Part shown: positions 365 to 59,625 of the stretch, piece by piece | Layout of the letters: the number at the start of each line of letters is the position of its first letter | Numbering within the stretch: position 1 is the stretch's first letter | DNA from: a virus | Length of the DNA: 64,000 nt | Strand: one strand, 5' to 3' | Virus record (IMG/VR): IMGVR_UViG_3300027573_000964 | Program-made: the position numbers and the translations under genes | The notes under the pieces: model-generated | What the model saw: only the letters and a program-made list of their open reading frames with translations | Told to the model about the DNA's origin: nothing | The model's database searches: none

Positions 365-367
365 AGA

Positions 368-622
368 TTAGAGTTCTACGTCATCATCTTTGGCAAGGCC
401 ACCTAATAGTAAGGTTAGGACTTCTTGCTTTCTATATTCTTCACTTTCGTTCAACATCTGTTCGACGTTGTAATTATTTTTGTGAAGTAACATAATATGC
501 TTATGTCCCTCAAGATGATTCTCACAAACAGGAACCTTTAGTTGTCCACCGAAGAAAGGTCTGATTTCAGTCTTCCCACCACAAGGACTGCCTAGGTGCC
601 ATACACATTTTACATCTGCCAT
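368..622 (-). CDS. small conserved protein, paralog family A (CxW-GxPCxG...VPxC-xH-xEH), copy 1 of 4
   Basis: 84 aa; shares motif with ORFs 16010..16258, 26537..26806, 31358..31633. Confidence 0.6.
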   Translation of the reverse strand: MADVKCVWHLGSPCGGKTEIRPFFGGQLKVPVCENHLEGHKHIMLLHKNNYNVEQMLNESEEYRKQEVLTLLLGGLAKDDDVEL

Positions 623-2709: not shown

Positions 2710-3094
2710 TTAATTTCTGTATTATCCAAACCTTTTTTGATTCTTCCATACGTCTGATTTTTTCTTTCACTTCATTAATTCTTTTATCAGCATATTGTAA
2801 TTCGGAGTTTGTTCGTTTAAAACTTTCATCGGACACATGCTCTTTGCAAAACATAGACGGTGCCGGGCAAACATTATGGCACTTTTCCATACCGCCCAAA
2901 ACACACCTAAATTCTACAAATTCATATATAAACTCTATATGTTGATCACCACTTGATGAATCTGATAAACTGTAAGTTGCCCCACAATTATCACATCGAA
3001 TAGTATCCGACCTTGCGAACAATCTAATTAGATTATTGCACTTTATACAATCAGTATCTTGCATTGATATTCTACCAGATACTTTTAAAGACAA
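2666..3094 (-). CDS. hypothetical Cys-rich protein (overlaps ligase start; true start probably internal)
   Basis: 142 aa; CIKCN, CDNCG, CxxxC clusters; TAG stop. Confidence 0.45.
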   Translation of the reverse strand: MSLKVSGRISMQDTDCIKCNNLIRLFARSDTIRCDNCGATYSLSDSSSGDQHIEFIYEFVEFRCVLGGMEKCHNVCPAPSMFCKEHVSDESFKRTNSELQYADKRINEVKEKIRRMEESKKVWIIQKLSGIDNEQDDTISKD

Positions 3095-3099
3095 TTCAG

Positions 3100-3489
3100 T
3101 TACCTCGCCTTGAACAGATTTCCCATCGCAGCAAGTTCATAAATACCTGGATTGGGAGGATTTTCCATTAAATAAGTCATTTCCTTATTTAATATTTCTA
3201 ACGTGGCTTTAAGCTTTAATAAACTCTTTTCTTCTGTTGTCTTAATACCAAACAACTTGAATATTTTTAGCTTTAGTCTTGAATAGTGTCTAAATTTCTC
3301 CGCCAATGTTTTTGCGTTGTTTAATACATCTGTAATTTGTAATGATAAATTATATCTTGCATCTTCCCATTTCTTTTTATCTTCTATATAAGCACCAAGT
3401 AATAAGGCCTGTGTTGATATCGCATTGTATTCTAAATATGTATCAGTAAGTCCTTCTACTTGTTTCCTCTGTAGATTTCCATTAGACAT
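3100..3489 (-). CDS. hypothetical protein
   Basis: 129 aa ORF. Confidence 0.5.
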   Translation of the reverse strand: MSNGNLQRKQVEGLTDTYLEYNAISTQALLLGAYIEDKKKWEDARYNLSLQITDVLNNAKTLAEKFRHYSRLKLKIFKLFGIKTTEEKSLLKLKATLEILNKEMTYLMENPPNPGIYELAAMGNLFKAR

Positions 3490-4704: not shown

Positions 4705-5760
4705 TTAACTCAGAGCATAGTCATATATAATATCACTGCACAATTCATCTAAAGCAGGCCTGTCGGGTTCTCTTGGTAGTTTAGAAGTTTCATACGCTGT
4801 TACAATCTCTGTTTCCATCTTTTCAGCGTATTCCTCTATTTGCTCATATTTCCAGGCACCATTTCGGATTGCCAAAAGTTCTTCTCTATCTGGTCGATAT
4901 ACTTGAACTTTTCCAGTCTCTAAGATTTCTTTACCCATACGCATAAGTCTAACTAAATGCGCAGCATGTTTAGTATCATATCCGTGCTTTTCTTCTAATG
5001 CCGAACGAGCCGCATTACGAGTATTTTTCCAGCTTTGATAAGAGTTCCATTTCGTAAGAGCATTTTCATACTCTTTCTCTTTAAATACAGCCTGCATTAA
5101 ACCATCTGAAAAATTCATAGTAGTCTTAAGTAATTCCATTTGTTCTGGAGTAAAACTATGAGATTGAACTAAACCGATATAGTTTAATTTTGATAGCTCT
5201 TCTTTAGCTGCGTCTGTTAATAGAGTGTATTGAACAGAGTCTTCTAACATCTTTGCGATGAGCCAATCTATGCCACCCATACCATCCTTGGAAAGTATTT
5301 TTCTATCAGGTAATCCAAAGTCGGACCGTTCTGGCTTTCCCTTTGGTGGATTTAATAAATAGCCTCTATGGTTCTTTATACGCTTTAATTGAGCAAAGGC
5401 ATAACCGGTATAGGTATAGCGGGCCTTTTTAGAAAGAAAAGCATCACGCTTGTCTAATACACGCTCCCAATAAGGTGTTATTTTTTGATAGAACTTGCTG
5501 TCTGTAAAGAGCAAATCCAGCATATTAGGGTTACAATCACTAATGAGCTTGAAGGCCTTACGGATATCGTATATAACTGTATCCTTGGTTGGGTCTTCGT
5601 ATTGCTCAAAGTGCTTTAAAAAGCCCGTGTAATAGCCTACGTCGTCCGGTATTGCGATTCCGCGGATATCTATGTCGCTGGTAGGTGTATTTGTACCATA
5701 CGCCGTAGAGCCCGTTATAGTGGAAAATATGGTACAACGCTCAATATCAGTTTTTTGCAT
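4705..5760 (-). CDS. Pol-beta superfamily nucleotidyltransferase (function unknown; minimal-NTase / class-I CCA-like head)
   Basis: 351 aa; GSTAYGTNTPTSDIDIRG = GS-x9-13-DxD NTase signature. Confidence 0.5.
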   Translation of the reverse strand: MQKTDIERCTIFSTITGSTAYGTNTPTSDIDIRGIAIPDDVGYYTGFLKHFEQYEDPTKDTVIYDIRKAFKLISDCNPNMLDLLFTDSKFYQKITPYWERVLDKRDAFLSKKARYTYTGYAFAQLKRIKNHRGYLLNPPKGKPERSDFGLPDRKILSKDGMGGIDWLIAKMLEDSVQYTLLTDAAKEELSKLNYIGLVQSHSFTPEQMELLKTTMNFSDGLMQAVFKEKEYENALTKWNSYQSWKNTRNAARSALEEKHGYDTKHAAHLVRLMRMGKEILETGKVQVYRPDREELLAIRNGAWKYEQIEEYAEKMETEIVTAYETSKLPREPDRPALDELCSDIIYDYALS

Positions 5761-18284: not shown

Positions 18285-18371
18285 TGGCGGAAGCAGAGAG
18301 ACTCGAACTCCCAAGCGCTTTTAGACGCCGCCTGCTTTCAAGGCAGGTTCCTCATCCAGCCGGATTACTTC
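18285..18371 (-). tRNA. tRNA-Ser(UGA), type II (long variable arm)
   Basis: 87 nt; acceptor GGAAGTA/TGCTTCC, anticodon arm CCTGC-CTTGAAA-GCAGG, long variable arm, T-loop TTCGAGT, CCA encoded. Confidence 0.75.
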
Positions 18372-18569
18372 CAATTCTTTCTCTGTAAGCCACCCATGTT
18401 CGTATATATTGTAGAAGTGTCTTTGGGCGGAAATATAATCTTTTGACATACTATTGCTTATAACTACTTGTGCAAATACTCCGCCAGTATTCTTACTTAC
18501 TACTAACTCGCGTATCTTCCAATCAAGACCTAAATGCATTATGTATGTTTCATATACGGTTCTATTCAT
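18321..18569 (-). CDS. hypothetical protein (3' end runs ~50 nt into tRNA-Ser gene)
   Basis: 82 aa ORF. Confidence 0.4.
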   Translation of the reverse strand: MNRTVYETYIMHLGLDWKIRELVVSKNTGGVFAQVVISNSMSKDYISAQRHFYNIYEHGWLTEKELEVIRLDEEPALKAGGV

Positions 18570-19432: not shown

Positions 19433-19508
19433 TGGTGCGCGAAGTAGGAGTCGAACCTACAACATCTCGCTAATCGGGCGAGCGCTCTCCCAGTTGAGCT
19501 ATCCGCGC
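19433..19508 (-). tRNA. tRNA-Ile(GAU)-like; anticodon loop CCGAUUA (C33, U37 unusual)
   Basis: RC GCGCGGATAGCTCAACTGGGAGAGCG-CTCGC-CCGATTA-GCGAG...GGTTCGACTCC...GCACCA. Confidence 0.7.
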
Positions 19509-21474: not shown

Positions 21475-21747
21475 TCATTTTTTGTATGCAATTGAAAAGC
21501 GTATGGTTGAAATATCAAAGCCTCTTCGCTCCAACTCTTCTACAAATGTCGTTTCCCCGCCTCCGGTATCATACTTTACATAAGAGAAATAATGATTTAG
21601 AAGGTGGCCATCTACGCGTTGTTTCGGATGATAAAACATTACGTCTTTTTCTTTTTCTGACCAATATACCCTAAGTTTATTTTTGGGCTTTAATCTTTCT
21701 TTCATTATTTTACCAATATTCGTCGTAGTGTCCAGCAACATCCACAT
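21475..21747 (-). CDS. hypothetical protein
   Basis: 90 aa ORF. Confidence 0.45.
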   Translation of the reverse strand: MWMLLDTTTNIGKIMKERLKPKNKLRVYWSEKEKDVMFYHPKQRVDGHLLNHYFSYVKYDTGGGETTFVEELERRGFDISTIRFSIAYKK

Positions 21748-22066
21748 TTAACTTTTCTAAAGATATTTTTATCTTTCCATATACGGTAAATGTGTTAGGC
21801 TTCTTGCATCCTTCAACTCCGCCTCTGCTATCAAATCCGGCAGTAAGTTCCAAAAAGTCGATATCTTTGCAATCGTCTCGTTCTAAAGCGGTCAAAGTCG
21901 GACGCCCACCATATCTAAACCCACACAAGTAAAGTGTTTCGCCTTTATCTATCTTAATTTCCAGTTGATTGGTGTCGTAATCTCCACCATATCCGCCTGC
22001 TTTAATGCTCTTAATGCCTTTGATTTTAGATAGGCGTTGTATCATTTTGTTAGTTTGCCAGTGCAT
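21710..22066 (-). CDS. hypothetical protein
   Basis: ORF 21710..22141 (GTG-initiated in track) trimmed to internal ATG; upstream codons are the tRNA-like gene. Confidence 0.45.
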   Translation of the reverse strand: MHWQTNKMIQRLSKIKGIKSIKAGGYGGDYDTNQLEIKIDKGETLYLCGFRYGGRPTLTALERDDCKDIDFLELTAGFDSRGGVEGCKKPNTFTVYGKIKISLEKLNVDVAGHYDEYW

Positions 22067-22078
22067 TATCTTCCTATT

Positions 22079-22165
22079 TGGCGCACGAGGAATGGGTTCG
22101 AACCATCGGCCTCTCAATAGACTTTTACCTCTATCGAGCACTCTACCGGCTGAGCTACATCGTGC
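22079..22165 (-). tRNA. atypical tRNA-like gene (87 nt): canonical acceptor/D/T arms but 9-bp anticodon stem with 8-nt loop GGUAAAAG
   Basis: RC GCACGATG-TA-GCTC-AGCCGGTA-GAGT-G-CTCGATAGA-GGTAAAAG-TCTATTGAG-AGGCC-GATGG-TTCGAAC-CCATT-CCTCGTGC-G-CCA; sequence confirmed against overlapping ORF translations. Confidence 0.5.
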
Positions 22166-22176
22166 ATATTTTCGAT

Positions 22177-22251
22177 TGGTCTGGGTGGAGAATTTTGAAA
22201 TCTCGACCTCCTGTTCCCAAAACAGGCGCGCTGCCTCTGCGCCACACCCAG
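22177..22251 (-). tRNA. tRNA-Pro(UGG)
   Basis: RC CTGGGTGTGGCGCAGAGGCAGCGCG-CCTGT-TTTGGGA-ACAGG...TTCAAAA...CACCCAGACCA. Confidence 0.8.
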
Positions 22252-22695
22252 TTATATTACAGACAGTATATCTTTATACCATCCCATTTGTTTTATCGTT
22301 TTTAACCTGTGGCACATTAGACATCTAATTTCGCATTTATCTATTTCTAATTGTATCTTTTCTATACCACATCCGCTTCTGCTTAAATCGCTAACATGCC
22401 TTTCTTTATTATTTGTGTGGTCAAAATCTAAAAATATTGGGTTGTTTTCACCACAATCTACACATGGATGGCTACTAAGATATTCCCATACATATGCTGA
22501 GTTTCGTTTGACCCGTCCCTTGTGGGCCGCGACTTTAAGCTTTTTGGTTTTAGCATCAAGTTTCTTATAATGTGCCTTATCGTACTTACTGGCACAACTT
22601 CTACACCAAGGACTGAGCAAACCTGTTTTGCTGTTTCTAACACTGAAACAATTTGTATCCTTATCTGAATTACATTTGTTGCAATGTTTTAACAT
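22252..22695 (-). CDS. HNH homing endonuclease
   Basis: 147 aa; CVDCGENNPIFLDFDHTNN...CLMCHR HNH motif; sits inside tRNA cluster. Confidence 0.7.
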   Translation of the reverse strand: MLKHCNKCNSDKDTNCFSVRNSKTGLLSPWCRSCASKYDKAHYKKLDAKTKKLKVAAHKGRVKRNSAYVWEYLSSHPCVDCGENNPIFLDFDHTNNKERHVSDLSRSGCGIEKIQLEIDKCEIRCLMCHRLKTIKQMGWYKDILSVI

Positions 22696-24177: not shown

Positions 24178-24367
24178 TGGAAGCTCGTTCTACTATTCCG
24201 TTTTTTATGTGCAGATTAATTCTATCTAATCTATAATCCATAGTTAGTATATAGCTACTGCCTTCGTAACTACTTACTCTTGGAACAAAACCAAGAACCT
24301 TTATGGCATATCTTGCCAGCCTCATATCAAGGCCTACTATTTGTTGGGCCAATTCTTTTGCTATCAT
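24170..24367 (-). CDS. peptidase inhibitor I78-like small protein, copy 1
   Basis: 65 aa; TMDYRLDRINLHIKNGIVERASIG resembles I78 domain (...DYRxDRLN...G.V.R..xG). Confidence 0.45.
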   Translation of the reverse strand: MIAKELAQQIVGLDMRLARYAIKVLGFVPRVSSYEGSSYILTMDYRLDRINLHIKNGIVERASIG

Positions 24368-25290
24368 ATATAAAGAGCCTTATCAGTTCGTTGTATTAAT
24401 TCGCATATCTCTTTGCCGCGTCGATTTAACTTTTTCCACTTTGACTTAAAGCCGTCAGAATCAATACCGCCAAACATTGTAGCATTGCTATGAAGCTCGG
24501 CTAAACCAACAATCAACAAAGTAGCGGCCTCTTTACGAGCAGCAAACTCTGGCACTTGCTCTGGCTTAATAGTATGAATATCCATATCCATTCTAATGAG
24601 CTTGCCAATTTGTTCATTGCCATCTAACGTCATCCAGGTTTGGTATGAAGTTTCGGCGTGGTGAAGAAAATGTTGCTTACCATCTTCATCTACAGTCAAA
24701 CAAAATGGCTTACCGCAGTCGTGGAATATTGTATATTTTTCAATATAGTATTCATCTAATAGGTGCTTTAATATAAGGTCTTTATACTCAAAGAACCAAT
24801 TGGGTAATTGCCAATCGAATTTGGGCTTATCGCCTTTCAATATACCAAGCAAATCAAATGTGTAGTCTCTAACGGATACACCATGGTCAAAGATAGTCTG
24901 TCCTTTGGTCTGAAAACAGGACGACATCTTCTTAACCAATTCTCTTGTTCGCTTTTCTTTATCGCAGGCAGCAGAGTTCTTATTTGCGTCGATTCTATAC
25001 GGATGTAATGCTACTGGAAAATTACCCTTGCAGAACTGTGTTGCTGCCTCGCTGGGCAACAAAGCAAGGGAAGTTAGGGCATTACCTATATCCGGCTCTC
25101 TAAACTCAATGTGGGCGATTTTAGAGGCCCTTAAAGCCTTCGCCGTATTGAATAGGTCTTTCTCTGTTGGCACTGATAACAAAACTATAGTATTGGAGTC
25201 TTTGTGCCACTGTCTCGTTTCTTCTGGGTATTGCATTAATAAGTCTGCTACTGCATGTGCGGACTGAACCGCCTGATAACCTACAGACAA
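24364..25290 (-). CDS. PTH2-like peptidyl-tRNA hydrolase domain fused to C-terminal domain of unknown function
   Basis: 308 aa; N-terminus GYQAVQSAHAVADLL...TIVLLSVPTEKDL...ALTSLALLP aligns with PTH2 GKxAAQxSHA...KVVLKV...IAPGS..VLGIGP. Confidence 0.55.
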   Translation of the reverse strand: MSVGYQAVQSAHAVADLLMQYPEETRQWHKDSNTIVLLSVPTEKDLFNTAKALRASKIAHIEFREPDIGNALTSLALLPSEAATQFCKGNFPVALHPYRIDANKNSAACDKEKRTRELVKKMSSCFQTKGQTIFDHGVSVRDYTFDLLGILKGDKPKFDWQLPNWFFEYKDLILKHLLDEYYIEKYTIFHDCGKPFCLTVDEDGKQHFLHHAETSYQTWMTLDGNEQIGKLIRMDMDIHTIKPEQVPEFAARKEAATLLIVGLAELHSNATMFGGIDSDGFKSKWKKLNRRGKEICELIQRTDKALYI

Positions 25291-43151: not shown

Positions 43152-43230
43152 TGGTGGGCAGGGATGGATTTGAACCACCGACCCTCGGGCCAAAAACGCC
43201 CGATGCTCTAACAGGCTGAGCTACCTGCCC
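43152..43230 (-). tRNA. tRNA with anticodon loop GUUUUUG (UUU, Lys-like) and 6-bp anticodon stem; atypical
   Basis: RC GGGCAGGTAGCTCAGCCTGTTAGAGC-A-TCGGGC-GTTTTTG-GCCCGA-GGGTC-GGTGGTTCAAATCCATC-CCTGCCC-A-CCA. Confidence 0.6.
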
Positions 43231-43797: not shown

Positions 43798-43872
43798 TGG
43801 CGCCCCGAGGAGGAATCGAACCCCCGACGCACCGATTTAGAGTCAGCCGCTCTGCCGCTGAGCTACCGGGGC
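43798..43872 (-). tRNA. tRNA with anticodon CUA (amber/UAG-reading suppressor-type tRNA; Lys-like anticodon arm)
   Basis: RC GCCCCGG-TA-GCTC-AGCGGCA-GAGC-G-GCTGA-CTCTAAA-TCGGT-GCGTC-GGGGG-TTCGATT-CCTCC-TCGGGGC-G-CCA; U33, anticodon C34-U35-A36, A37. Confidence 0.75.
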
Positions 43873-44090: not shown

Positions 44091-44365
44091 CTTATAGCGA
44101 ACCAGTATTCATTCATTTCTTTTAGAAACTTTTTACTTATAGTATAGTCGCTATCACTACCAATAACAGAATCAATACCGCACTTAGGGCATAGTGCGGT
44201 ATCTCCTGCGTCTATCCATTCTTTAATCTCACTGAACTTAAAATGGTTGCAGCAATAAAAACACCCTATAACTGCACTATTTTTTAGCTCTTCTTTATGA
44301 TTGGAAGAATGTTCATGAGCCTGTATTATCTTCTCTTGGTTCGCCAAGTTCAACCTCTGGTTCAT
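44087..44365 (-). CDS. hypothetical zinc-binding protein
   Basis: 92 aa; CFYCCNH...CPKCG. Confidence 0.4.
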   Translation of the reverse strand: MNQRLNLANQEKIIQAHEHSSNHKEELKNSAVIGCFYCCNHFKFSEIKEWIDAGDTALCPKCGIDSVIGSDSDYTISKKFLKEMNEYWFAIR

Positions 44366-45440
44366 TTAAACCAATCATTTCTTCCAATGATTTAATTTGC
44401 ATATCAGCTACATAACGCTTAAAGTCAGGCGTCTTGCCGTATTTCATTTGAAACATAGCATCGGAAAATGATTGCGTAGTGGCCATCTTTGCGAAGTCCT
44501 TGCGCTCTTCTATGTGCTTAATGCCATCATAGAAGCCTTCCATTCTACCCAACAACCGCTCATACTTATAACGAATGTTATTATATTCATCGGTAAATTC
44601 AGGATAGTAAGAAAGGAATTCGCTTCCTTCGTTGGTACGAACTAGCTCTAACAACTTGCGCCTGCTCATCCCAACACTGTCTCGTAAGTGAGATACAGCA
44701 ACGTATTGAGGAGACTTTACTTTAACGCGGTTGTAGTTGGAATCACAAACAACATAGCCTTCGCATTCCATGGGTTCAAGCGTTTTAGCAGCTTCAACTA
44801 TTTCATCCCAAGAAGTTAGAGGGAATATTTTTACACATTCCCAGCCGTAGTGGTGAGCTTCTATTACAGGATTTAATTCTTTGAAGTCGGACAAACGACG
44901 AGCACCATGCAATACTATACGATCTTCTAAGTGACGAACCACTACACGATTCTTGGCAGTCATCATCTCGAACATATAGCAAACATTAGTATCGGTAGGA
45001 AGTTTGTATCCTAACTTTTTCCAAACTTGCCAGAACAACTGAGAGAAAGTTATATCATAACCATTCACTTCACCAGCCGCATCGGGCAATCCAGAAGAAG
45101 AAACTTGCCAAGCGCCGTCATAAAAATACAACGTCATTAGCGAGCCATCTAATTTTTCATATACGCGCGCAGAAGACCAATCTATATCGTCAGCGTGTCC
45201 TTCGCCATAGTTAAAAAACTTGGAATAAGGAAATGAAACAACCTTCCAGCCTTGCGCCTCATCGAGTATTAAACCACGGCATTGCTGAACAACTTTAACA
45301 CCCATAGGAGAGTTAATTTGGTCATACTTCAATAACACAAGGTTATTATACTTACCGTGACGCTTCGCAGCTATCTCAAACTTGTCGCATAACTTATCAA
45401 GTCCGTGCGCCTTTATATAATCTACTACCTCTAAGTTCAT
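44313..45440 (-). CDS. rnlA: RNA ligase 1 (T4 RnlA/gp63-like)
   Basis: 375 aa; QCRGLIL...KFFNYGE...VYEKLDGSLMTLYFYDGAW aligns to T4 Rnl1 ECRGIMF...KFFNLNE...ILTKEDGSLVSTYLDGDE; EGYVVCDSNYNRVKVKS vs EGYVAVMKDGSHFKIKS. Confidence 0.85.
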   Translation of the reverse strand: MNLEVVDYIKAHGLDKLCDKFEIAAKRHGKYNNLVLLKYDQINSPMGVKVVQQCRGLILDEAQGWKVVSFPYSKFFNYGEGHADDIDWSSARVYEKLDGSLMTLYFYDGAWQVSSSGLPDAAGEVNGYDITFSQLFWQVWKKLGYKLPTDTNVCYMFEMMTAKNRVVVRHLEDRIVLHGARRLSDFKELNPVIEAHHYGWECVKIFPLTSWDEIVEAAKTLEPMECEGYVVCDSNYNRVKVKSPQYVAVSHLRDSVGMSRRKLLELVRTNEGSEFLSYYPEFTDEYNNIRYKYERLLGRMEGFYDGIKHIEERKDFAKMATTQSFSDAMFQMKYGKTPDFKRYVADMQIKSLEEMIGLNEPEVELGEPREDNTGS

Positions 45441-46020: not shown

Positions 46021-47148
46021 CTAATGAAACTCGCTGTTCTTTTTATCTAGCTTGAAGGTCTCGCTTACATATTTTAATATAACGCGACCACATCCTGGAT
46101 ATTTTCTTTCACGCTTGGGCTTTATTACTATGCCCTCACGAATGAACTTCTTTCCGTTATATTCATCAACAGCTTCGGATAATTTAGTAACAGCAATACT
46201 CCAGGGGCCTCTATAAGCAACTGATACCGTAGGCAGGTTGTGTGCCATACAGGTATAAACTACTTTGTCCCAATCCAAGTATTCTCCATCAACCATAATA
46301 TCGAATACACGAAGTTCTAATTCACCTTGAGGTATTCCATAATCATACCCAGTTTGAATACCAGGCCCAATGATTTCCCCAAAAATAGTTACTTCAGATA
46401 CACCATCAGATAACTCTTTTGTGATGTTGCGTAAATCATACTTATCAGCAACTCGCCAATAAGTATCGTTTATGTCTGTTCCTCTTTTAGACTTTTGTCT
46501 AATAGTGTTGTGAGAGCCAACAAGGGATTCCATATTAGGAACGCTAAAGCCAAAGAAAGATTTAACTTTCTCCCACCGTGTATAAGACTTTTTAGGGCGT
46601 TTGACATAGCCACACCGGAAGTTCGTTCCGTGATATTTAACGGTGGCTATGACTTCCTCGCCTTCTACGAAGTTACGAGGATACTTTTTAAAGCTTTCGA
46701 TGTCAGTATATTTCTTAAAGTTCTCGTTAGTATAGTGATGATTGATGCCCTTTGACTTAAAAGCACTCTGACCTCTTGGAGGTGGAGGCTCATATTTAGT
46801 TACGCCTAAATACTCTGTAACATCTTGGTCTTCTTTGATAAGTTCGGGCGGCAACCACGCACTGGGGGTTAAACAAAGTCCGTCAGAAAATACGCCACGA
46901 ATTTTAGTGCATCTAATACGACCCTCTTTAACTTCTATTTTTTGAGTAGTAGTTAAATAGATTCTAATATTCTCTGGAACTACACTGTTTTCTGGAATGA
47001 ATAAAGCAAGGTCGCCGCTTTTAAATTGGTCTTTGCCAACAATAGCAGCAAATCCACCTTCGCCGCCTATAGTAGCTATCTCTAACTTATCAGCGTTAGG
47101 ATGTGGAACAATCTCCACTTTTGATACTTTTACACTTACGGTACTCAT
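46021..47148 (-). CDS. Rnl2-family RNA ligase fused to N-terminal Myf/EMAP-type tRNA-binding domain
   Basis: 375 aa; N-terminus VKVSKVEIVPHPNADKL...IVGK...GDLALF...IRGVFSDGLCLT = tRNA_bind (Trbp111/CsaA-like) signature; then TVKYHGTNFRCGYV = Rnl2 motif I (KxHGxN) and EVTIFGEIIGPGIQ = motif III. Confidence 0.75.
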   Translation of the reverse strand: MSTVSVKVSKVEIVPHPNADKLEIATIGGEGGFAAIVGKDQFKSGDLALFIPENSVVPENIRIYLTTTQKIEVKEGRIRCTKIRGVFSDGLCLTPSAWLPPELIKEDQDVTEYLGVTKYEPPPPRGQSAFKSKGINHHYTNENFKKYTDIESFKKYPRNFVEGEEVIATVKYHGTNFRCGYVKRPKKSYTRWEKVKSFFGFSVPNMESLVGSHNTIRQKSKRGTDINDTYWRVADKYDLRNITKELSDGVSEVTIFGEIIGPGIQTGYDYGIPQGELELRVFDIMVDGEYLDWDKVVYTCMAHNLPTVSVAYRGPWSIAVTKLSEAVDEYNGKKFIREGIVIKPKRERKYPGCGRVILKYVSETFKLDKKNSEFH

Positions 47149-55062: not shown

Positions 55063-55272
55063 TTATTCGTGTTCCAATCCCCATTTAGAATTGTTCCACA
55101 ATCTTTCATAAATATAATATGTTACGAACGCTATAGTTGTTCCCGCTATTGATATACGCAGAGATAAAGTCATATCTCCGGTAAAGGCGTATGATATTAT
55201 TGTTCCTCTTGCAAAGGCAATAACTCTCCATATTGTTGCTTTTAATAGTGTTCTCTTAATAGTCTCTTTCAT
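55063..55272 (-). CDS. small membrane protein
   Basis: 69 aa; two hydrophobic segments. Confidence 0.4.
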   Translation of the reverse strand: MKETIKRTLLKATIWRVIAFARGTIISYAFTGDMTLSLRISIAGTTIAFVTYYIYERLWNNSKWGLEHE

Positions 55273-57256
55273 TATTTACTATGGAGGGCCTATCCCACTC
55301 TCCACTCACCAGGCTTTTCAATTCTATTAATTCTTGTTCAAATCCACTTGATATAATAGGAAATCTGCACCAAGTTTTTGGATCCAAGTTCTCATCGTCT
55401 AAGTGGAAAGATGGCGCGTATCGCTCGCGCTTCCACTGGTTTCTGCACCACAACTTAAAGAATTTTTCTATCCAAGCACCAAGCTGAACCTTATCGTACA
55501 AGCCCTGCATAAGCAAAAATATTTCTGTAGGAGAGCGCTTATCTCTTATTGCGTGTTTCTCTAATTGATCTAATACACCGTAGGGCATTAAATCATCTTC
55601 ATCTCTTTGATTCTTTTCTGTAGGTCTAAGTTCAGCGGTAGGCTCTTGATTATTTACATACGATAAGGCTGGGATAGTAGTTTCTATCTGTCTCAACCAC
55701 ATACGCAAATAATTTTTATCAATACCAGCTATGGGACTTAATCCACCGCAAGTATCTCCGTCCATAGTAGCATAACCTACGGCAGCCTCTGAACGATTGC
55801 TTGTAGCCAATAGGATAGCATTCTTAATGTTGGCAAGCATCCATATTGAAGGGCCGCGAACTCTTGCTTGAATATTCTGTAGCGTTACGTCGTCTTGTTC
55901 CCAAGTAAGTTTGCGGCCGATAGATTTTTCAATCATACCAGTATATAAACTTACAGCTGCTGATATATCCAAATTATGGAACTCTGCACCAAGAGATTCT
56001 GCCACTCTTAAAGCGGCGGTATAAGTAGTGTCCGAACTGTTCTTTGAGCCTTGATATGCGCAAGTTAAGAGTTTGTTAGATATTTCTTTTAAAGCGCTCA
56101 GGTCTTGGATAGAAGATATATAAGCCAGCTTCTTTTTAAAAGCATTCAGACCTATATTATTAATAGCATCCTTGACCATTAAATACACCAGGCTAGATAC
56201 AGCTGATGAATCTGCGCCGCCACTTAAACTTACTACATAGCCATTTGATTTGGCTTTACGCATAAAGTCAAACAGCCCAAGTGATACTGCTTTCTGAAAC
56301 TCTTCGTGCTTCTTGTAAGTTCTATCTGTTCCAGATAAAAATTCTGGAACATGAAACTTCGGATTGAATGAACCACCATTTATGCATAACTCATCGTCTT
56401 CCACATTAGGAACAAAGCTGGCGGTTCTGGAACGGCTTGTGTTATTAGAATGAACATCTACAACAGCGCTGGTGACAAGAAAGTCTTCATAAGAAAATCT
56501 CTCTCCTGAACTTACTATATTGCCATTGGTGGCTATGATAGTATCACCATCATATATAACACGACCAGATTCATTGCCTAATAGATTGGCGTACACATAT
56601 ACGCAATTAAAAGCTCTGGAGCCTTCAACTACGAACCCTTTGCGTATCTCATGCTTGCCAAATGCAAAATGGCTAGCACTAGGATTTAGAATTATATCTA
56701 CACCCCGTGAAGCAAGTTGTCTGCCAGGCCTATCATATACCCAGGCATCTTCACAAATCTCAAATCCAACCTTGATAGGATTAGCATTCCCTAAAGAAAA
56801 ATATATATCACCTATGGGATACTGCCTACAATTAAAATTCAGAGTAGATTTTATTCCTTTGGGCCACGCCTTAAACCAACGAGGTTCATAGTGAATACCG
56901 TCGCCAGCAAGATATTTCTTAGCAACGAAGCCGAGTATCTGCCCGCTGTTAATCATACATGCTACATTAAAAATAGCACCGTTCAACTCAACTGGAAGAC
57001 CAACTGACACCGCCATACCTGTACTGGTGGTATGCTGTGCGATATTTAACAGACACTCACCTGCGCGACGAAGGACATCTTTAGAATGAAACATATCCTC
57101 GCAGCCGTATCCAGTAATGCAAAGCTCTGGCAAACATAACAGTTCTACACCAGTTTCTTTTGCGGACTTTATAGCTTGGATAATATTATTAGTATTGTGC
57201 TCCCAAGCCATAGGCGTTTGATTTAACGCCACAGCTGCTACTTTAATGCCCTTCAT
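55256..57256 (-). CDS. nadE: glutamine-dependent NAD+ synthetase (N-terminal nitrilase/CN-hydrolase domain + NAD synthase domain)
   Basis: 666 aa; LCLPELCITGYGCED, FEICEDAW (nitrilase E-K-C); VVSLSGGADSSAV PP-loop. Confidence 0.85.
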   Translation of the reverse strand: MKGIKVAAVALNQTPMAWEHNTNNIIQAIKSAKETGVELLCLPELCITGYGCEDMFHSKDVLRRAGECLLNIAQHTTSTGMAVSVGLPVELNGAIFNVACMINSGQILGFVAKKYLAGDGIHYEPRWFKAWPKGIKSTLNFNCRQYPIGDIYFSLGNANPIKVGFEICEDAWVYDRPGRQLASRGVDIILNPSASHFAFGKHEIRKGFVVEGSRAFNCVYVYANLLGNESGRVIYDGDTIIATNGNIVSSGERFSYEDFLVTSAVVDVHSNNTSRSRTASFVPNVEDDELCINGGSFNPKFHVPEFLSGTDRTYKKHEEFQKAVSLGLFDFMRKAKSNGYVVSLSGGADSSAVSSLVYLMVKDAINNIGLNAFKKKLAYISSIQDLSALKEISNKLLTCAYQGSKNSSDTTYTAALRVAESLGAEFHNLDISAAVSLYTGMIEKSIGRKLTWEQDDVTLQNIQARVRGPSIWMLANIKNAILLATSNRSEAAVGYATMDGDTCGGLSPIAGIDKNYLRMWLRQIETTIPALSYVNNQEPTAELRPTEKNQRDEDDLMPYGVLDQLEKHAIRDKRSPTEIFLLMQGLYDKVQLGAWIEKFFKLWCRNQWKRERYAPSFHLDDENLDPKTWCRFPIISSGFEQELIELKSLVSGEWDRPSIVNNERDY

Positions 57257-58185: not shown

Positions 58186-59625
58186 TTATTTACGCGCTAG
58201 TATTAGCTCGTTTCTTAATTTGTTTAATTCCTTATCTAAATAAACATTTGGACGCCTGAAGATGTTTTGGTCTATGTTTATAGATTTTGCTCTGCTAAAG
58301 TTAATATCTGGGGAAGTATATATTAAATTGCCTCTTACATATATTGGCGCAAGTAATTTGTATTCTGTATATGGTAGCGCTGAAAATCTTTGTTCAAAAT
58401 TGTCATCATCTTGGTCAGCGTCCAATGCTACAAGTTCTCCAGAAAATCCAAGCTCTGTATCATATATAACATCTCTAACTGAAGAGTCAGTTTGATTAGT
58501 TCGTCTCAATACTTGTTGAGCACCAGGAATTGAAGTCTTGATTAAACTGTCAGATAGTTTTATCTTTGGCACACTTTTGCCGGTGGAGTCTTCTAATACA
58601 GCCAACTTATAAACCCCGCCCAGAGCAGGTTGGTCATAAGATGTAATGAGCTTTGTTCCGACTCCCCATGCGTTTATCTTGGCACCATCAGCTTTTAATT
58701 TAGCTATCTGGTCTTCATCCAAATCATTGCTAGCCACAATAATAGTATTCTTAAAGTCGGCGGCATCTAACATTTGCCTGGCTATTTTGCTTAACTCACA
58801 TAAGTTTCCAGAGTCCAAGCGAATGCCATGTAGGTTATGTCCCAACTTACGAAGAGTTTTGCCAGCTTCTATAGCGGACATTACACCACCCACAGTGCCG
58901 TAAGTATCAACTAGCAAAGTTGCATTGTTAGGCATTGCTTCTACATACTTAGTCATAGCTTCTAGTTCTGAATCAAAGCTCATAATCCAAGAATGTGCAT
59001 GAGTTCCCTTGACTGGTATATTGAATAATTTACCAGCTAAGACATTCGAGGTTCCAGAACAACCACCCACATAAGCAGCGCGCGAAGCAGTTAGCGCTCC
59101 ATCGAATCCCTGCGCTCTACGCAAACCAAAATCAAATACCACGTCACCTTTAGCTGTCTTATAAGTTCTGTAAGCCTTTGTGGCGATAAGCGTATTAAAA
59201 TTAATGAGATTGAGTAGCGGGCTTTCTAATAGCTGACATTGGTCTAACGACCCAGTTATACTTAACAGTGGTTCGTGAGCATAGACAGCAGTACCTTCTT
59301 CAATAGCATTTACATCACAAGTGAATTTAAGCCCACCCAAATAATCTATAAACTCTTTGCTAAATAGAGGGCAACCATCATTACCAGTCAGGGTAGAAAG
59401 AAATTCACAATCGCTAGTATCAAACCACTTGCCCTTTAAAGTTTCTATAAACTCAATAGCAGGTTGTAGCCCACATGCTACAGCGAAACCATTATTAAAT
59501 GGAGCCTTGCGAAAGAACAAGTTGAAGGTCGCACGACGACTACTCATACCGTGTTTCCAATAACCATAGGCCATCGTAAGTTGGTATAAGTCTGTCATTA
59601 ACCCCAAAGAGGTGTTATATATCAT
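58186..59625 (-). CDS. pncB: nicotinate phosphoribosyltransferase (NAPRT-type)
   Basis: 479 aa; MTDLYQLTMAYGYWKHG..., GLRRAQGFDGALTASRAAYVGG...SNVLAGKLFNIPVKGTHAHSWIMSF closely parallels NAPRT LLTDLYQATMALGYW / GLRRAQGPDGGLTAS / SNVLAG...GT(L/H)AHS. Confidence 0.85.
   Translation of the reverse strand: MIYNTSLGLMTDLYQLTMAYGYWKHGMSSRRATFNLFFRKAPFNNGFAVACGLQPAIEFIETLKGKWFDTSDCEFLSTLTGNDGCPLFSKEFIDYLGGLKFTCDVNAIEEGTAVYAHEPLLSITGSLDQCQLLESPLLNLINFNTLIATKAYRTYKTAKGDVVFDFGLRRAQGFDGALTASRAAYVGGCSGTSNVLAGKLFNIPVKGTHAHSWIMSFDSELEAMTKYVEAMPNNATLLVDTYGTVGGVMSAIEAGKTLRKLGHNLHGIRLDSGNLCELSKIARQMLDAADFKNTIIVASNDLDEDQIAKLKADGAKINAWGVGTKLITSYDQPALGGVYKLAVLEDSTGKSVPKIKLSDSLIKTSIPGAQQVLRRTNQTDSSVRDVIYDTELGFSGELVALDADQDDDNFEQRFSALPYTEYKLLAPIYVRGNLIYTSPDINFSRAKSINIDQNIFRRPNVYLDKELNKLRNELILARK

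Follow-up and report, generated by a model that had tools for sequence, protein, structure and literature searches.

The 87-nt gene at positions 22079..22165 of the window (the whole 64,000-nt stretch of viral DNA analyzed here, IMG/VR record IMGVR_UViG_3300027573_000964) encodes, on the minus strand, a tRNA-shaped RNA in which a rigid 9-bp helix takes the place of the anticodon arm. With a probability of roughly 45%, and judging from sequence, the product is a small RNA that derives from a tRNA, does not decode, and is kin to an odd tRNA-Lys-like gene of the phage; it would be matured like a tRNA and would act through its body or its A-rich loop in a tRNA-centered conflict between phage and host. 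The gene was delimited by a match to the tRNA model RF00005, by the cloverleaf predicted with RNAfold, by three assemblies that are identical in this region, and by homologues on three other contigs (L147, L148 and L156).

When read on the minus strand, to which all coordinates below refer, the 5' half of the RNA is GCACGAUG-UA-GCUC-AGCCGGUA-GAGU-G-CUCGAUAGA-GGUAAAAG-UCUAUUGAG, and the 3' half, which follows UCUAUUGAG, is AGGCC-GAUGG-UUCGAAC-CCAUU-CCUCGUGC-G-CCA; all sequence segments quoted in the original prediction were found in place. The D arm GCUC-AGCCGGUA-GAGU (22140..22155) carries the canonical A14, G15, G18, G19 and A21, and the variable loop AGGCC with the T arm GAUGG-UUCGAAC-CCAUU (22091..22112) was placed by the RF00005 alignment. 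The acceptor 3' strand CCUCGUGC, the discriminator G and an encoded CCA, which is common to all ARAGORN-called tRNAs in the window, were located by sequence reading at 22079..22090. The 5' strand of the acceptor stem, GCACGAUG, occupies 22158..22165 according to sequence reading, the ARAGORN drawing and the per-pair counts. This stem has 8 positions with a mismatch (U.C) at the seventh, that is, one extra nucleotide on each strand, so that 10 nt lead up to the D stem, and CCA follows 8 nt and the discriminator. As an acceptor stem has 7 pairs by rule, and 8 is a tRNA-Sec- or tRNA-His-like feature, the original description of a canonical body held for the D arm, the T arm, G73 and CCA, but not for the acceptor stem.

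The extended arm (22113..22138) is a helix of nine uninterrupted pairs between CUCGAUAGA and UCUAUUGAG (8 Watson-Crick pairs and one G.U), capped by the 8-nt loop GGUAAAAG (22122..22129), which begins with GG and has no U33. Sequence reading, RNAfold and RNAalifold all bore out this 9-bp stem and 8-nt loop. The minimum-energy structure given by RNAfold was the cloverleaf with the 9-bp arm, with an unexceptional energy (z = -1.53); the same cloverleaf was predicted for all three sequence variants described below, and the 9-bp arm was recovered when RNAalifold was applied to their alignment. RF00005 matched positions 22083-22164 at 40.7 bits (E=3.6e-5 for the whole window), above its gathering threshold of 29 bits, and the match required 15 nt as an anticodon-loop insertion where the model has 6 loop positions. 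This was the lowest-but-two tRNA score in the window, in which nearly all other type I (short-variable-arm) tRNAs scored 54-73 bits and an unusual tRNA-Gly alone was lower (35.1 bits). ARAGORN did not call the gene under default settings; a tRNA-like reading, the forced label 'tRNA-?(Leu|Phe)(taaa)', was returned only at a lowered threshold. Of the features of a canonical decoding tRNA, the 5-bp anticodon stem, the 7-nt loop with U33 and purine 37, and the 7-bp acceptor stem were all absent.

The combination of a 9-bp helix, an A-rich 8-nt loop and an overlong acceptor stem means that no anticodon can be presented to the ribosome, and judging from helix geometry the RNA is almost certainly unable to read codons. 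A working decoder, which would read a quadruplet, cause a +1 frameshift, or use an anticodon AAA or UAA within the 8-nt loop, had been among the original suggestions. It would account for a loop of the length found in frameshift-suppressor tRNAs, for the 4-base anticodon 'taaa' in the ARAGORN label, and for the intact body and CCA. This explanation is opposed by the absence of U33, by a stem of 9 bp instead of 5 bp (∼11 Å longer, as estimated from the A-form rise), and by the mismatched 8-bp acceptor stem; with 4 bp too many in one stem and 1 bp too many in the other, A-form geometry suggests that the distance from anticodon to CCA would not fit the ribosome. Moreover, the arm of the homologue L147 is bulged and of another length, which would shift any anticodon register, and the standard code without frameshifts explains the window, 85% of which is coding. 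Stop-codon recoding was ruled out as a context by this figure and by the use of TAG as the terminator of 21 of the 104 ORFs. Frameshift-suppressor tRNAs of the sufD type have an 8-nt loop together with U33, a purine following the anticodon, a stem of 5 bp and an acceptor stem of 7 bp; the gene described here resembles them only in an 8-nt loop on a tRNA-like body, the other hallmarks being absent. A decoding function is thus highly improbable.

The 8-bp acceptor stem, 5-bp T stem and G73 also recall tRNA-Sec. Bacterial tRNA-Sec (RF01852) combines the 8/5 acceptor/T-stem geometry with a long variable arm, a 6-bp D stem and the anticodon UCA, none of which was present in the tRNA-like gene, whose 8-bp stem is in addition mismatched. 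An E-value-thresholded cmscan of the locus returned RF00005 only, and tRNA-Sec was rejected, just the 8/5 geometry and G73 being shared.

The arm was also considered as the product of an insertion. Lak megaphages carry pseudo-tRNAs as well as tRNAs with 'enigmatic introns', and genes of this sort are suggested to be widespread among phages with large genomes (Devoto et al., bioRxiv 10.1101/356790); by analogy, an endonuclease would excise the insert together with the two phage-encoded RNA ligases. In its intron mode ARAGORN called a tRNA-Leu(GAG) with a 9-nt intron, AAAAGUCUA, and many insert-bearing viral tRNAs were present in IMG/VR, besides those on record for huge phages (10.1101/356790). 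However, all eight possible 9-nt excisions from the 16-nt region between CUCGA and UUGAG leave an A at position 33. Only U-A or C-A can come to stand at positions 32-33, and no 10-nt excision from the L147 sequence gives a 7-nt loop with U33. The loop of the proposed tRNA-Leu(GAG), UAGAGGU, likewise has A33, and a bacterial tRNA-Leu is impossible given the short variable loop of the body. Furthermore, no bulge-helix-bulge motif interrupts the perfect helix of the arm, and in L147 the 'mature' stem of 5 bp that this model predicts has lost its fifth pair. As no excision restores a normal anticodon loop, the intron-containing tRNA was rejected and is scarcely credible. Body-based patterns retrieved no insertless copies of the tRNA-like gene from IMG/VR. 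The Lak cases are similar in that they are oversized tRNA genes in the arrays of genomes of >400 kb, are left unclassified by standard finders, and are conserved between related phages; they differ in having recognizable isotypes (Phe, Gly, Thr and Tyr) and an excision point that can be deduced from insertless copies (10.1101/356790). The tRNA-like gene has no recoverable anticodon, a perfect helix extension and a longer acceptor stem.

The region of the tRNA-like gene was identical in the JGI assembly 3300009678 (171-kb contig), in ENA ERZ27267619 (468-kb contig) and in Logan SRR5468912, and such identity across three independent assemblies shows that it is not an assembly artefact. The source genome of ∼468 kb looks like that of a huge phage. 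The genes of the window all lie on one strand and include 19 further tRNAs, two of them Lys(UUU), together with an HNH endonuclease, the two RNA ligases, an RlaP nucleotidyltransferase, a PTH2-like protein and NAD-salvage enzymes; the closest relatives of the window enzymes among GenBank phage records were found in jumbo phages as well as in uncultured and smaller phages. Upstream of the tRNA-like gene, a tRNA-Pro(UGG) (22177..22251) stands in tandem with it in all lineages in which the gene occurs, and the 11-nt spacer between the two (22166..22176) is conserved in L148 and L156 and has one change in L147. Downstream, an ORF of 118 amino acids (ORF118, 21710..22066) starts 13 nt after CCA, and an AGGAAG ribosome-binding site lies between. 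Pfam and PHROGs gave no match for the flanking small ORFs beyond the HNH endonuclease and DUF4326. No local repeat was found that would explain the arm by insertion of a duplicated or palindromic segment.

Close sequence relatives were few. DNA similarity searches of GenBank phages in near and distant modes gave no match to the tRNA-like gene, and neither loop-based nor body-based patterns matched in IMG/VR. A D/T-arm pattern retrieved from IMG/VR only normal Lys, Asn, Ile, Thr and Val tRNAs, and its long-gap form retrieved more than 120 oversized viral tRNAs, which were unrelated, none being homologous. Through a neighboring protein, the sole IMG/VR relative was a distant one (L001, 49% identity, on a 359-kb contig), and no tRNAs lay near the homologue of that protein. 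In 185,579 representative genomes (one per bacterial or archaeal species), four matches were obtained, all of them due to chance and in non-tRNA sequence. A pattern scan of JGI metagenome contigs yielded seven matches, including two true homologues, L147 and L148; the pattern required the loop GGTAAAAG, so that the conservation of the loop in these two is built in. L156, which has the variant of L148, came from a separate search with a flanking protein.

The three variants of the gene were then compared position by position. L148 and L156 differ from the window at a single position, where C27 has become U and the lowest pair of the arm has gone from C-G to U.G; in its flanks, L148 shares 91.6-95.5% identity with the window. 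L147, with flanks 88% identical, has 10 substitutions and one deletion relative to the window gene, and none of these changes falls on a conserved tertiary nucleotide. Within the 4-pair extension of its arm, both strands have changed, so that U-A became C-G in a compensatory manner; the original prediction had pointed to relatives with the extended arm and to such changes as a check, and both were thus found. A one-nucleotide bulge replaces the G.U pair of the L147 arm, leaving 4 + 4 pairs. In the T stem of L147, G.U became G-C and A-U became G.U, both still paired, the mismatch of the acceptor stem stayed a mismatch (U.C to A.C), and the changes in the D-loop, T-loop and variable loop were confined to variable positions. 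All four D-arm pairs are unchanged across the three variants, and the elbow and core nucleotides (U8, A14, G18-G19, A21, T54-Psi55-C56, A58 and the 5-nt variable loop) are intact in each; the discriminator, CCA and tertiary nucleotides are likewise intact in the three lineages. Among the variants, the sequence of the arm varies while the tRNA body is conserved.

According to pair counting, 94.8% of cells were paired, as against 25-58% in slid registers. A formal covariation test was not significant, 181 of 500 shuffles reaching the observed score, a control that is uninformative with only three distinct sequence variants. In a neutral simulation, in which ten substitutions were drawn at random under the transition bias seen in the data, an outcome with at most one broken pair and no conserved nucleotide hit had P=0.021, and the chance that the four extension pairs would all be Watson-Crick can be put at about (1/4)^4 = 0.004. 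Between the window and L147, 11 changes were counted in the 87 nt of the tRNA-like gene and 7 in the 93 nt of a tRNA-Ser(GCU) located 1.3 kb away, whose differences include two compensatory pairs; the divergences were ∼12.6% for the tRNA-like gene, 11.9% for flanking coding DNA and 7.5% for tRNA-Ser. The gene evolves faster than a real tRNA and at about the rate of the surrounding coding DNA, yet in a structure-preserving manner. Selection on the fold is moderately supported.

These rates bear on the possibility that the gene is a pseudogene, a neutral relic of a duplicated Lys-type tRNA that would have lost its anticodon loop through a local rearrangement and would be young and harmless. This is consistent with the low RF00005 score, with a divergence from L147 that matches the flanking coding DNA and exceeds that of tRNA-Ser, with the lack of the gene in the close relatives L152 and L161, and with its confinement to one small clade, beyond which GenBank phages, IMG/VR and the 185,579 genomes gave no match; huge phages are also known for many pseudo-tRNAs (10.1101/356790). 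A perfect 9-bp helix, however, is a gain and not a decay, the substitutions in L147 and L148 are all compatible with the structure, including the compensatory extension pair, and CCA, discriminator and tertiary nucleotides persist in three lineages. A similar 8-nt loop also occurs on a different tRNA body in the same slot of L161. The degenerate tRNA proposed earlier is thus favored by the absence of the gene from some close relatives and by its fast evolution relative to the adjacent tRNA-Ser, but opposed by changes that preserve the fold and the extended helix, and on balance a relic seems somewhat unlikely, though it merits serious attention.

The position of the gene was compared across contigs retrieved through the flanking proteins of 102 and 118 amino acids (ORF102 and ORF118). 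In the window, the order is ORF102, HNH, tRNA-Pro, tRNA-like gene and ORF118; L148 and L156 have the same order without HNH, and in L147 ORF102, tRNA-Pro and the tRNA-like gene are followed by unrelated sequence. In L152, ORF102 and tRNA-Pro are followed by a Met-zincin-like (protease-like) ORF of 188 amino acids and ORF118, with no tRNA-like gene, and in L161 a different aberrant tRNA lies between tRNA-Pro and ORF118. This variable content indicates that the tRNA-like gene is an accessory module and not a core gene. ORF118 is not obligatorily linked to it either, as L152 has the ORF without the gene and L147 the reverse. The arm of the slot tRNA of L161 can be drawn as a 5-bp stem with an 8-nt loop, or as 6 bp with 6 nt. 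As for relatives with a normal 5-bp/7-nt arm at this position, named in the original prediction as evidence against it, L161 was a weak case: its slot tRNA differs, and the arm is also non-canonical. Its loop CGUAAUAG matches GGUAAAAG at 6 of 8 positions, a resemblance that does not stem from ascertainment, given that L161 was retrieved through a flanking protein and not through a loop pattern.

A second odd gene of the window, the 'tRNA-Lys(UUU)' at 43152..43230 (Lys2), has a 6-bp stem and the loop GUUUUUG. Among the window tRNAs, Lys2 gave the best pairwise score to the tRNA-like gene, and its body is also that of the slot tRNA of L161. The variable loop and T arm AGGUCGGUGGUU-AA---CCAUCCCU are common to the tRNA-like gene of L147, Lys2 and the slot tRNA of L161. 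This shared element and the top score of Lys2 suggest that the tRNA-like gene belongs, as a diverged paralogue, to the Lys2-type family; its probable counterpart is the aberrant tRNA-Lys-like gene that the phage itself carries.

The arrangement of the slot would also suit a cis-acting 'punctuation' element, in which the tRNA body would serve as an RNase P/RNase Z signal that separates tRNA-Pro from the downstream mRNA and sets the 5' end of the latter, the arm needing only a stable helix. Such a role fits the spacing, with tRNA-Pro 11 nt away on one side and the ATG of ORF118, preceded by its ribosome-binding site, 13 nt away on the other, as well as the conserved body with its variable arm sequence. 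It also fits the finding that in L161 another non-decoding tRNA precedes ORF118 at exactly this position. The tRNA-like gene showed neither a promoter nor a terminator signal of its own, which points in the same direction. Yet tRNA-Pro already supplies a processing site of this kind, ORF118 of L152 stands behind a protein gene with no tRNA-like element, the L147 gene precedes unrelated sequence, and the resemblance between the loops of the two genes that occupy the slot would be left unexplained. A punctuation role is accordingly judged to be distinctly unlikely.

In the preferred reading, that of a non-decoding small RNA matured like a tRNA, the gene would be transcribed within the co-directional array of tRNAs and small ORFs, 11 nt behind tRNA-Pro, and the RNA would be cut out and matured by host tRNA-processing enzymes like the neighboring tRNAs; maturation of the tRNA type is expected from the elbow, the variable loop, the acceptor end and the encoded G-CCA. 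Lacking a usable anticodon, the RNA would be confined to acting as a mimic, a sponge or a partner. Two modes of action, which do not exclude each other, are most likely. In mode (i), as a mimic of the tRNA body, it would occupy tRNA-binding factors, such as defence nucleases docking on the body of a tRNA, and would confront them with double-stranded RNA at the site in the anticodon stem-loop that they normally cleave. In mode (ii), UAAAAG of the loop would undergo loop-loop pairing with the CUUUUA anticodon loop of tRNA-Lys(UUU). Both are favored by the investment of the genome in tRNAs and RNA repair, by the Lys-type ancestry, and by the published counter-defence of phages based on tRNA-Lys. 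The decoy or mimic for a host anticodon nuclease that the original prediction had listed is compatible with all observations and would be the preferred direction. Against the preferred reading, the gene is dispensable, being replaced by the 188-aa ORF in L152 and by the other tRNA in L161. Against the mimic in particular, GGUAAAAG resembles no known anticodon loop, and a nuclease that reads the anticodon would therefore not be fooled.

The element UAAAAG of GGUAAAAG is a 6-nt Watson-Crick complement of CUUUUA, positions 32-37 of the canonical tRNA-Lys(UUU) of the phage. By a post hoc test, a random 8-mer would show such complementarity to one of the 19 anticodon loops with P of about 0.04. Real tRNA-Lys carries modifications at U34 and A37, and these would restrict kissing over 6 bp. 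As an antisense target, the complement of the loop region was not enriched in the window (3 matches versus 7.7 expected). A bolder form of the hypothesis is an 'anti-anticodon' tRNA mimic, which would make a new class among the counter-defence RNAs of phages: the body would recruit the RNA to factors that handle tRNA-Lys, and the helix with UAAAAG would either shield tRNA-Lys(UUU) by pairing with its anticodon loop or jam PrrC-, RloC- or PARIS-like anticodon nucleases specific for tRNA-Lys as an uncleavable pseudo-substrate. Under this form CGUAAUAG of L161, an Asn codon flanked by U and A, would be a second specificity. We regard it as a very unlikely reading of the locus.

Phage tRNAs are already known to take part in such conflicts. 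A variant tRNA-Lys of T5 neutralizes the tRNA-cleaving defence PARIS, whose AriB cleaves the anticodon stem between positions 40 and 41 (PMC11464382), and anticodon-loop variants of phage tRNAs have been proposed to confer resistance to tRNA-cleaving defence nucleases (PMC10264068). The tRNA-like gene shares with these resistant tRNAs a Lys-type body, an altered anticodon stem-loop and a genome rich in tRNAs and RNA repair. It differs in that the resistant tRNAs still decode and replace the cleaved host tRNA, whereas the tRNA-like RNA has no usable anticodon; replacement of the T5 type would call for a UUU anticodon, in place of which the loop bears the complement AAAA. In the papers cited here on phage tRNA variants, no demonstration of a mimic, sponge or partner mode was found for any phage tRNA. 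Among eukaryotic tRNA-like RNAs, the vtRNAs of murine gammaherpesvirus 68 and mascRNA are processed, are not aminoacylated, and have shortened or aberrant anticodon arms. The likeness lies in a tRNA body that serves RNase P/Z processing, putative in the present case, and CCA status without decoding, and there is no sequence relationship.

If functional, the tRNA-like gene would extend the tactics of phages against tRNA-cleaving defences from replacement tRNAs to non-decoding mimics, and it would provide a defined 87-nt RNA that is directly testable against nucleases targeting tRNA-Lys. If a relic, it would be a caution for the annotation of tRNAs in phage metagenomes. Huge phages carry dozens of tRNA genes, many of which are labeled 'undetermined' or 'pseudo' and then ignored; here a lengthened helix and acceptor stem stand on an intact body, in a shape that is apparently maintained across diverging relatives. 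Oversized and odd-armed viral tRNAs were numerous in IMG/VR.

Folding of the 87-nt tRNA-like gene with RNAfold and RNAalifold returned an alternative pairing (window 22076-22112; columns 55-57 with 77-79 of alignment A3), in which AGG of the variable loop and CCU on the 3' side of the acceptor stem form pairs and the inner acceptor pairs are left unclosed. This alternative is possible because the seventh acceptor position holds a conserved mismatch, and the AGG/CCU pairing may be an artefact of the prediction, or the RNA may really switch between conformations.

The closest paralogue of the tRNA-like gene in the window, Lys2 (43152-43230, minus strand), was annotated as a second tRNA-Lys(UUU) and is non-canonical. 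Its anticodon arm, as read from the sequence, is UCGGGC-GUUUUUG-GCCCGA, which can be drawn with 6 bp in the stem, placing G at position 32, U at 37 and G at 38, or as a 9-nt loop on a 5-bp stem. Four A-U and two G.U pairs make the U-rich loop of Lys2 complementary to GGUAAAAG, the A-rich loop in the tRNA-like gene.

In two related contigs, the slot of the tRNA-like gene was otherwise occupied. In L161, a Lys2-type tRNA (367-444, plus strand) was found, with the 6-nt loop GUAAUA on a 6-bp stem, and it was reported by ARAGORN as "tRNA-???" with a 2-base anticodon; in an 8-nt reading its loop is CGUAAUAG, identical to GGUAAAAG at 6/8 positions. In L152, a 188-aa ORF (2782-3348, plus strand) with a zinc-protease-like motif (HTLGLDHNH; weak Met-zincin hit) stands in for the tRNA-like gene, with tRNA-Pro on one side and the 118-aa ORF on the other.

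An HNH endonuclease ORF (phrog_2255, E=8.5e-29) is encoded at window 22252-22695 (minus strand). Its absence from the corresponding junction in five relatives (L147, L148, L152, L156 and L161) suggests a mobile homing-type insertion. Two distinct alleles of tRNA-Pro(UGG), of 75 and 78 nt, were found among these phages, and their distribution was independent of the HNH gene.

Three other tRNAs of the window, all on the minus strand, were noted. The tRNA-Ile(GAU) (19433-19508; anticodon loop CCGAUUA) carries C at position 33, where U is near-universal. The tRNA-Ser(UGA) (18286-18372), which has a long variable arm, was not called by ARAGORN and scored 29.9 bits with the Rfam tRNA model, barely at threshold, and 34.5 bits with the Sec model. 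An amber-suppressor-type tRNA with anticodon CUA (43798-43872) is encoded even though TAG is an ordinary stop, ending 21 of the 104 window ORFs, and the window is 85% coding under the standard code.

The window also contains a gene set of RNA-repair type, all on the minus strand: an Rnl1-like RNA ligase (44313-45440), another RNA ligase, with a PHA02142 OB domain (46021-47148), an RlaP nucleotidyltransferase (4705-5760) and a PTH2-like protein (24364-25290). NAD salvage is represented by NadE (55256-57256) and NAPRTase (58186-59625).

Among IMG/VR contigs, tRNA-like genes with different aberrant anticodon arms were observed in many unrelated viruses (L102, L107/L110, L123, L084/L098/L116/L030/L070 and L036), for example with 4-nt loops (GGUA, GAUG, CCAA) on 7-bp stems or U-rich 14-nt loops on 6-bp stems. 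In a 360-kb contig, the loop of such a gene holds an inserted hairpin, GGGG-GAAA-CCCC, and eukaryote-type introns were present in numerous giant-virus tRNA-Tyr and tRNA-Lys genes.
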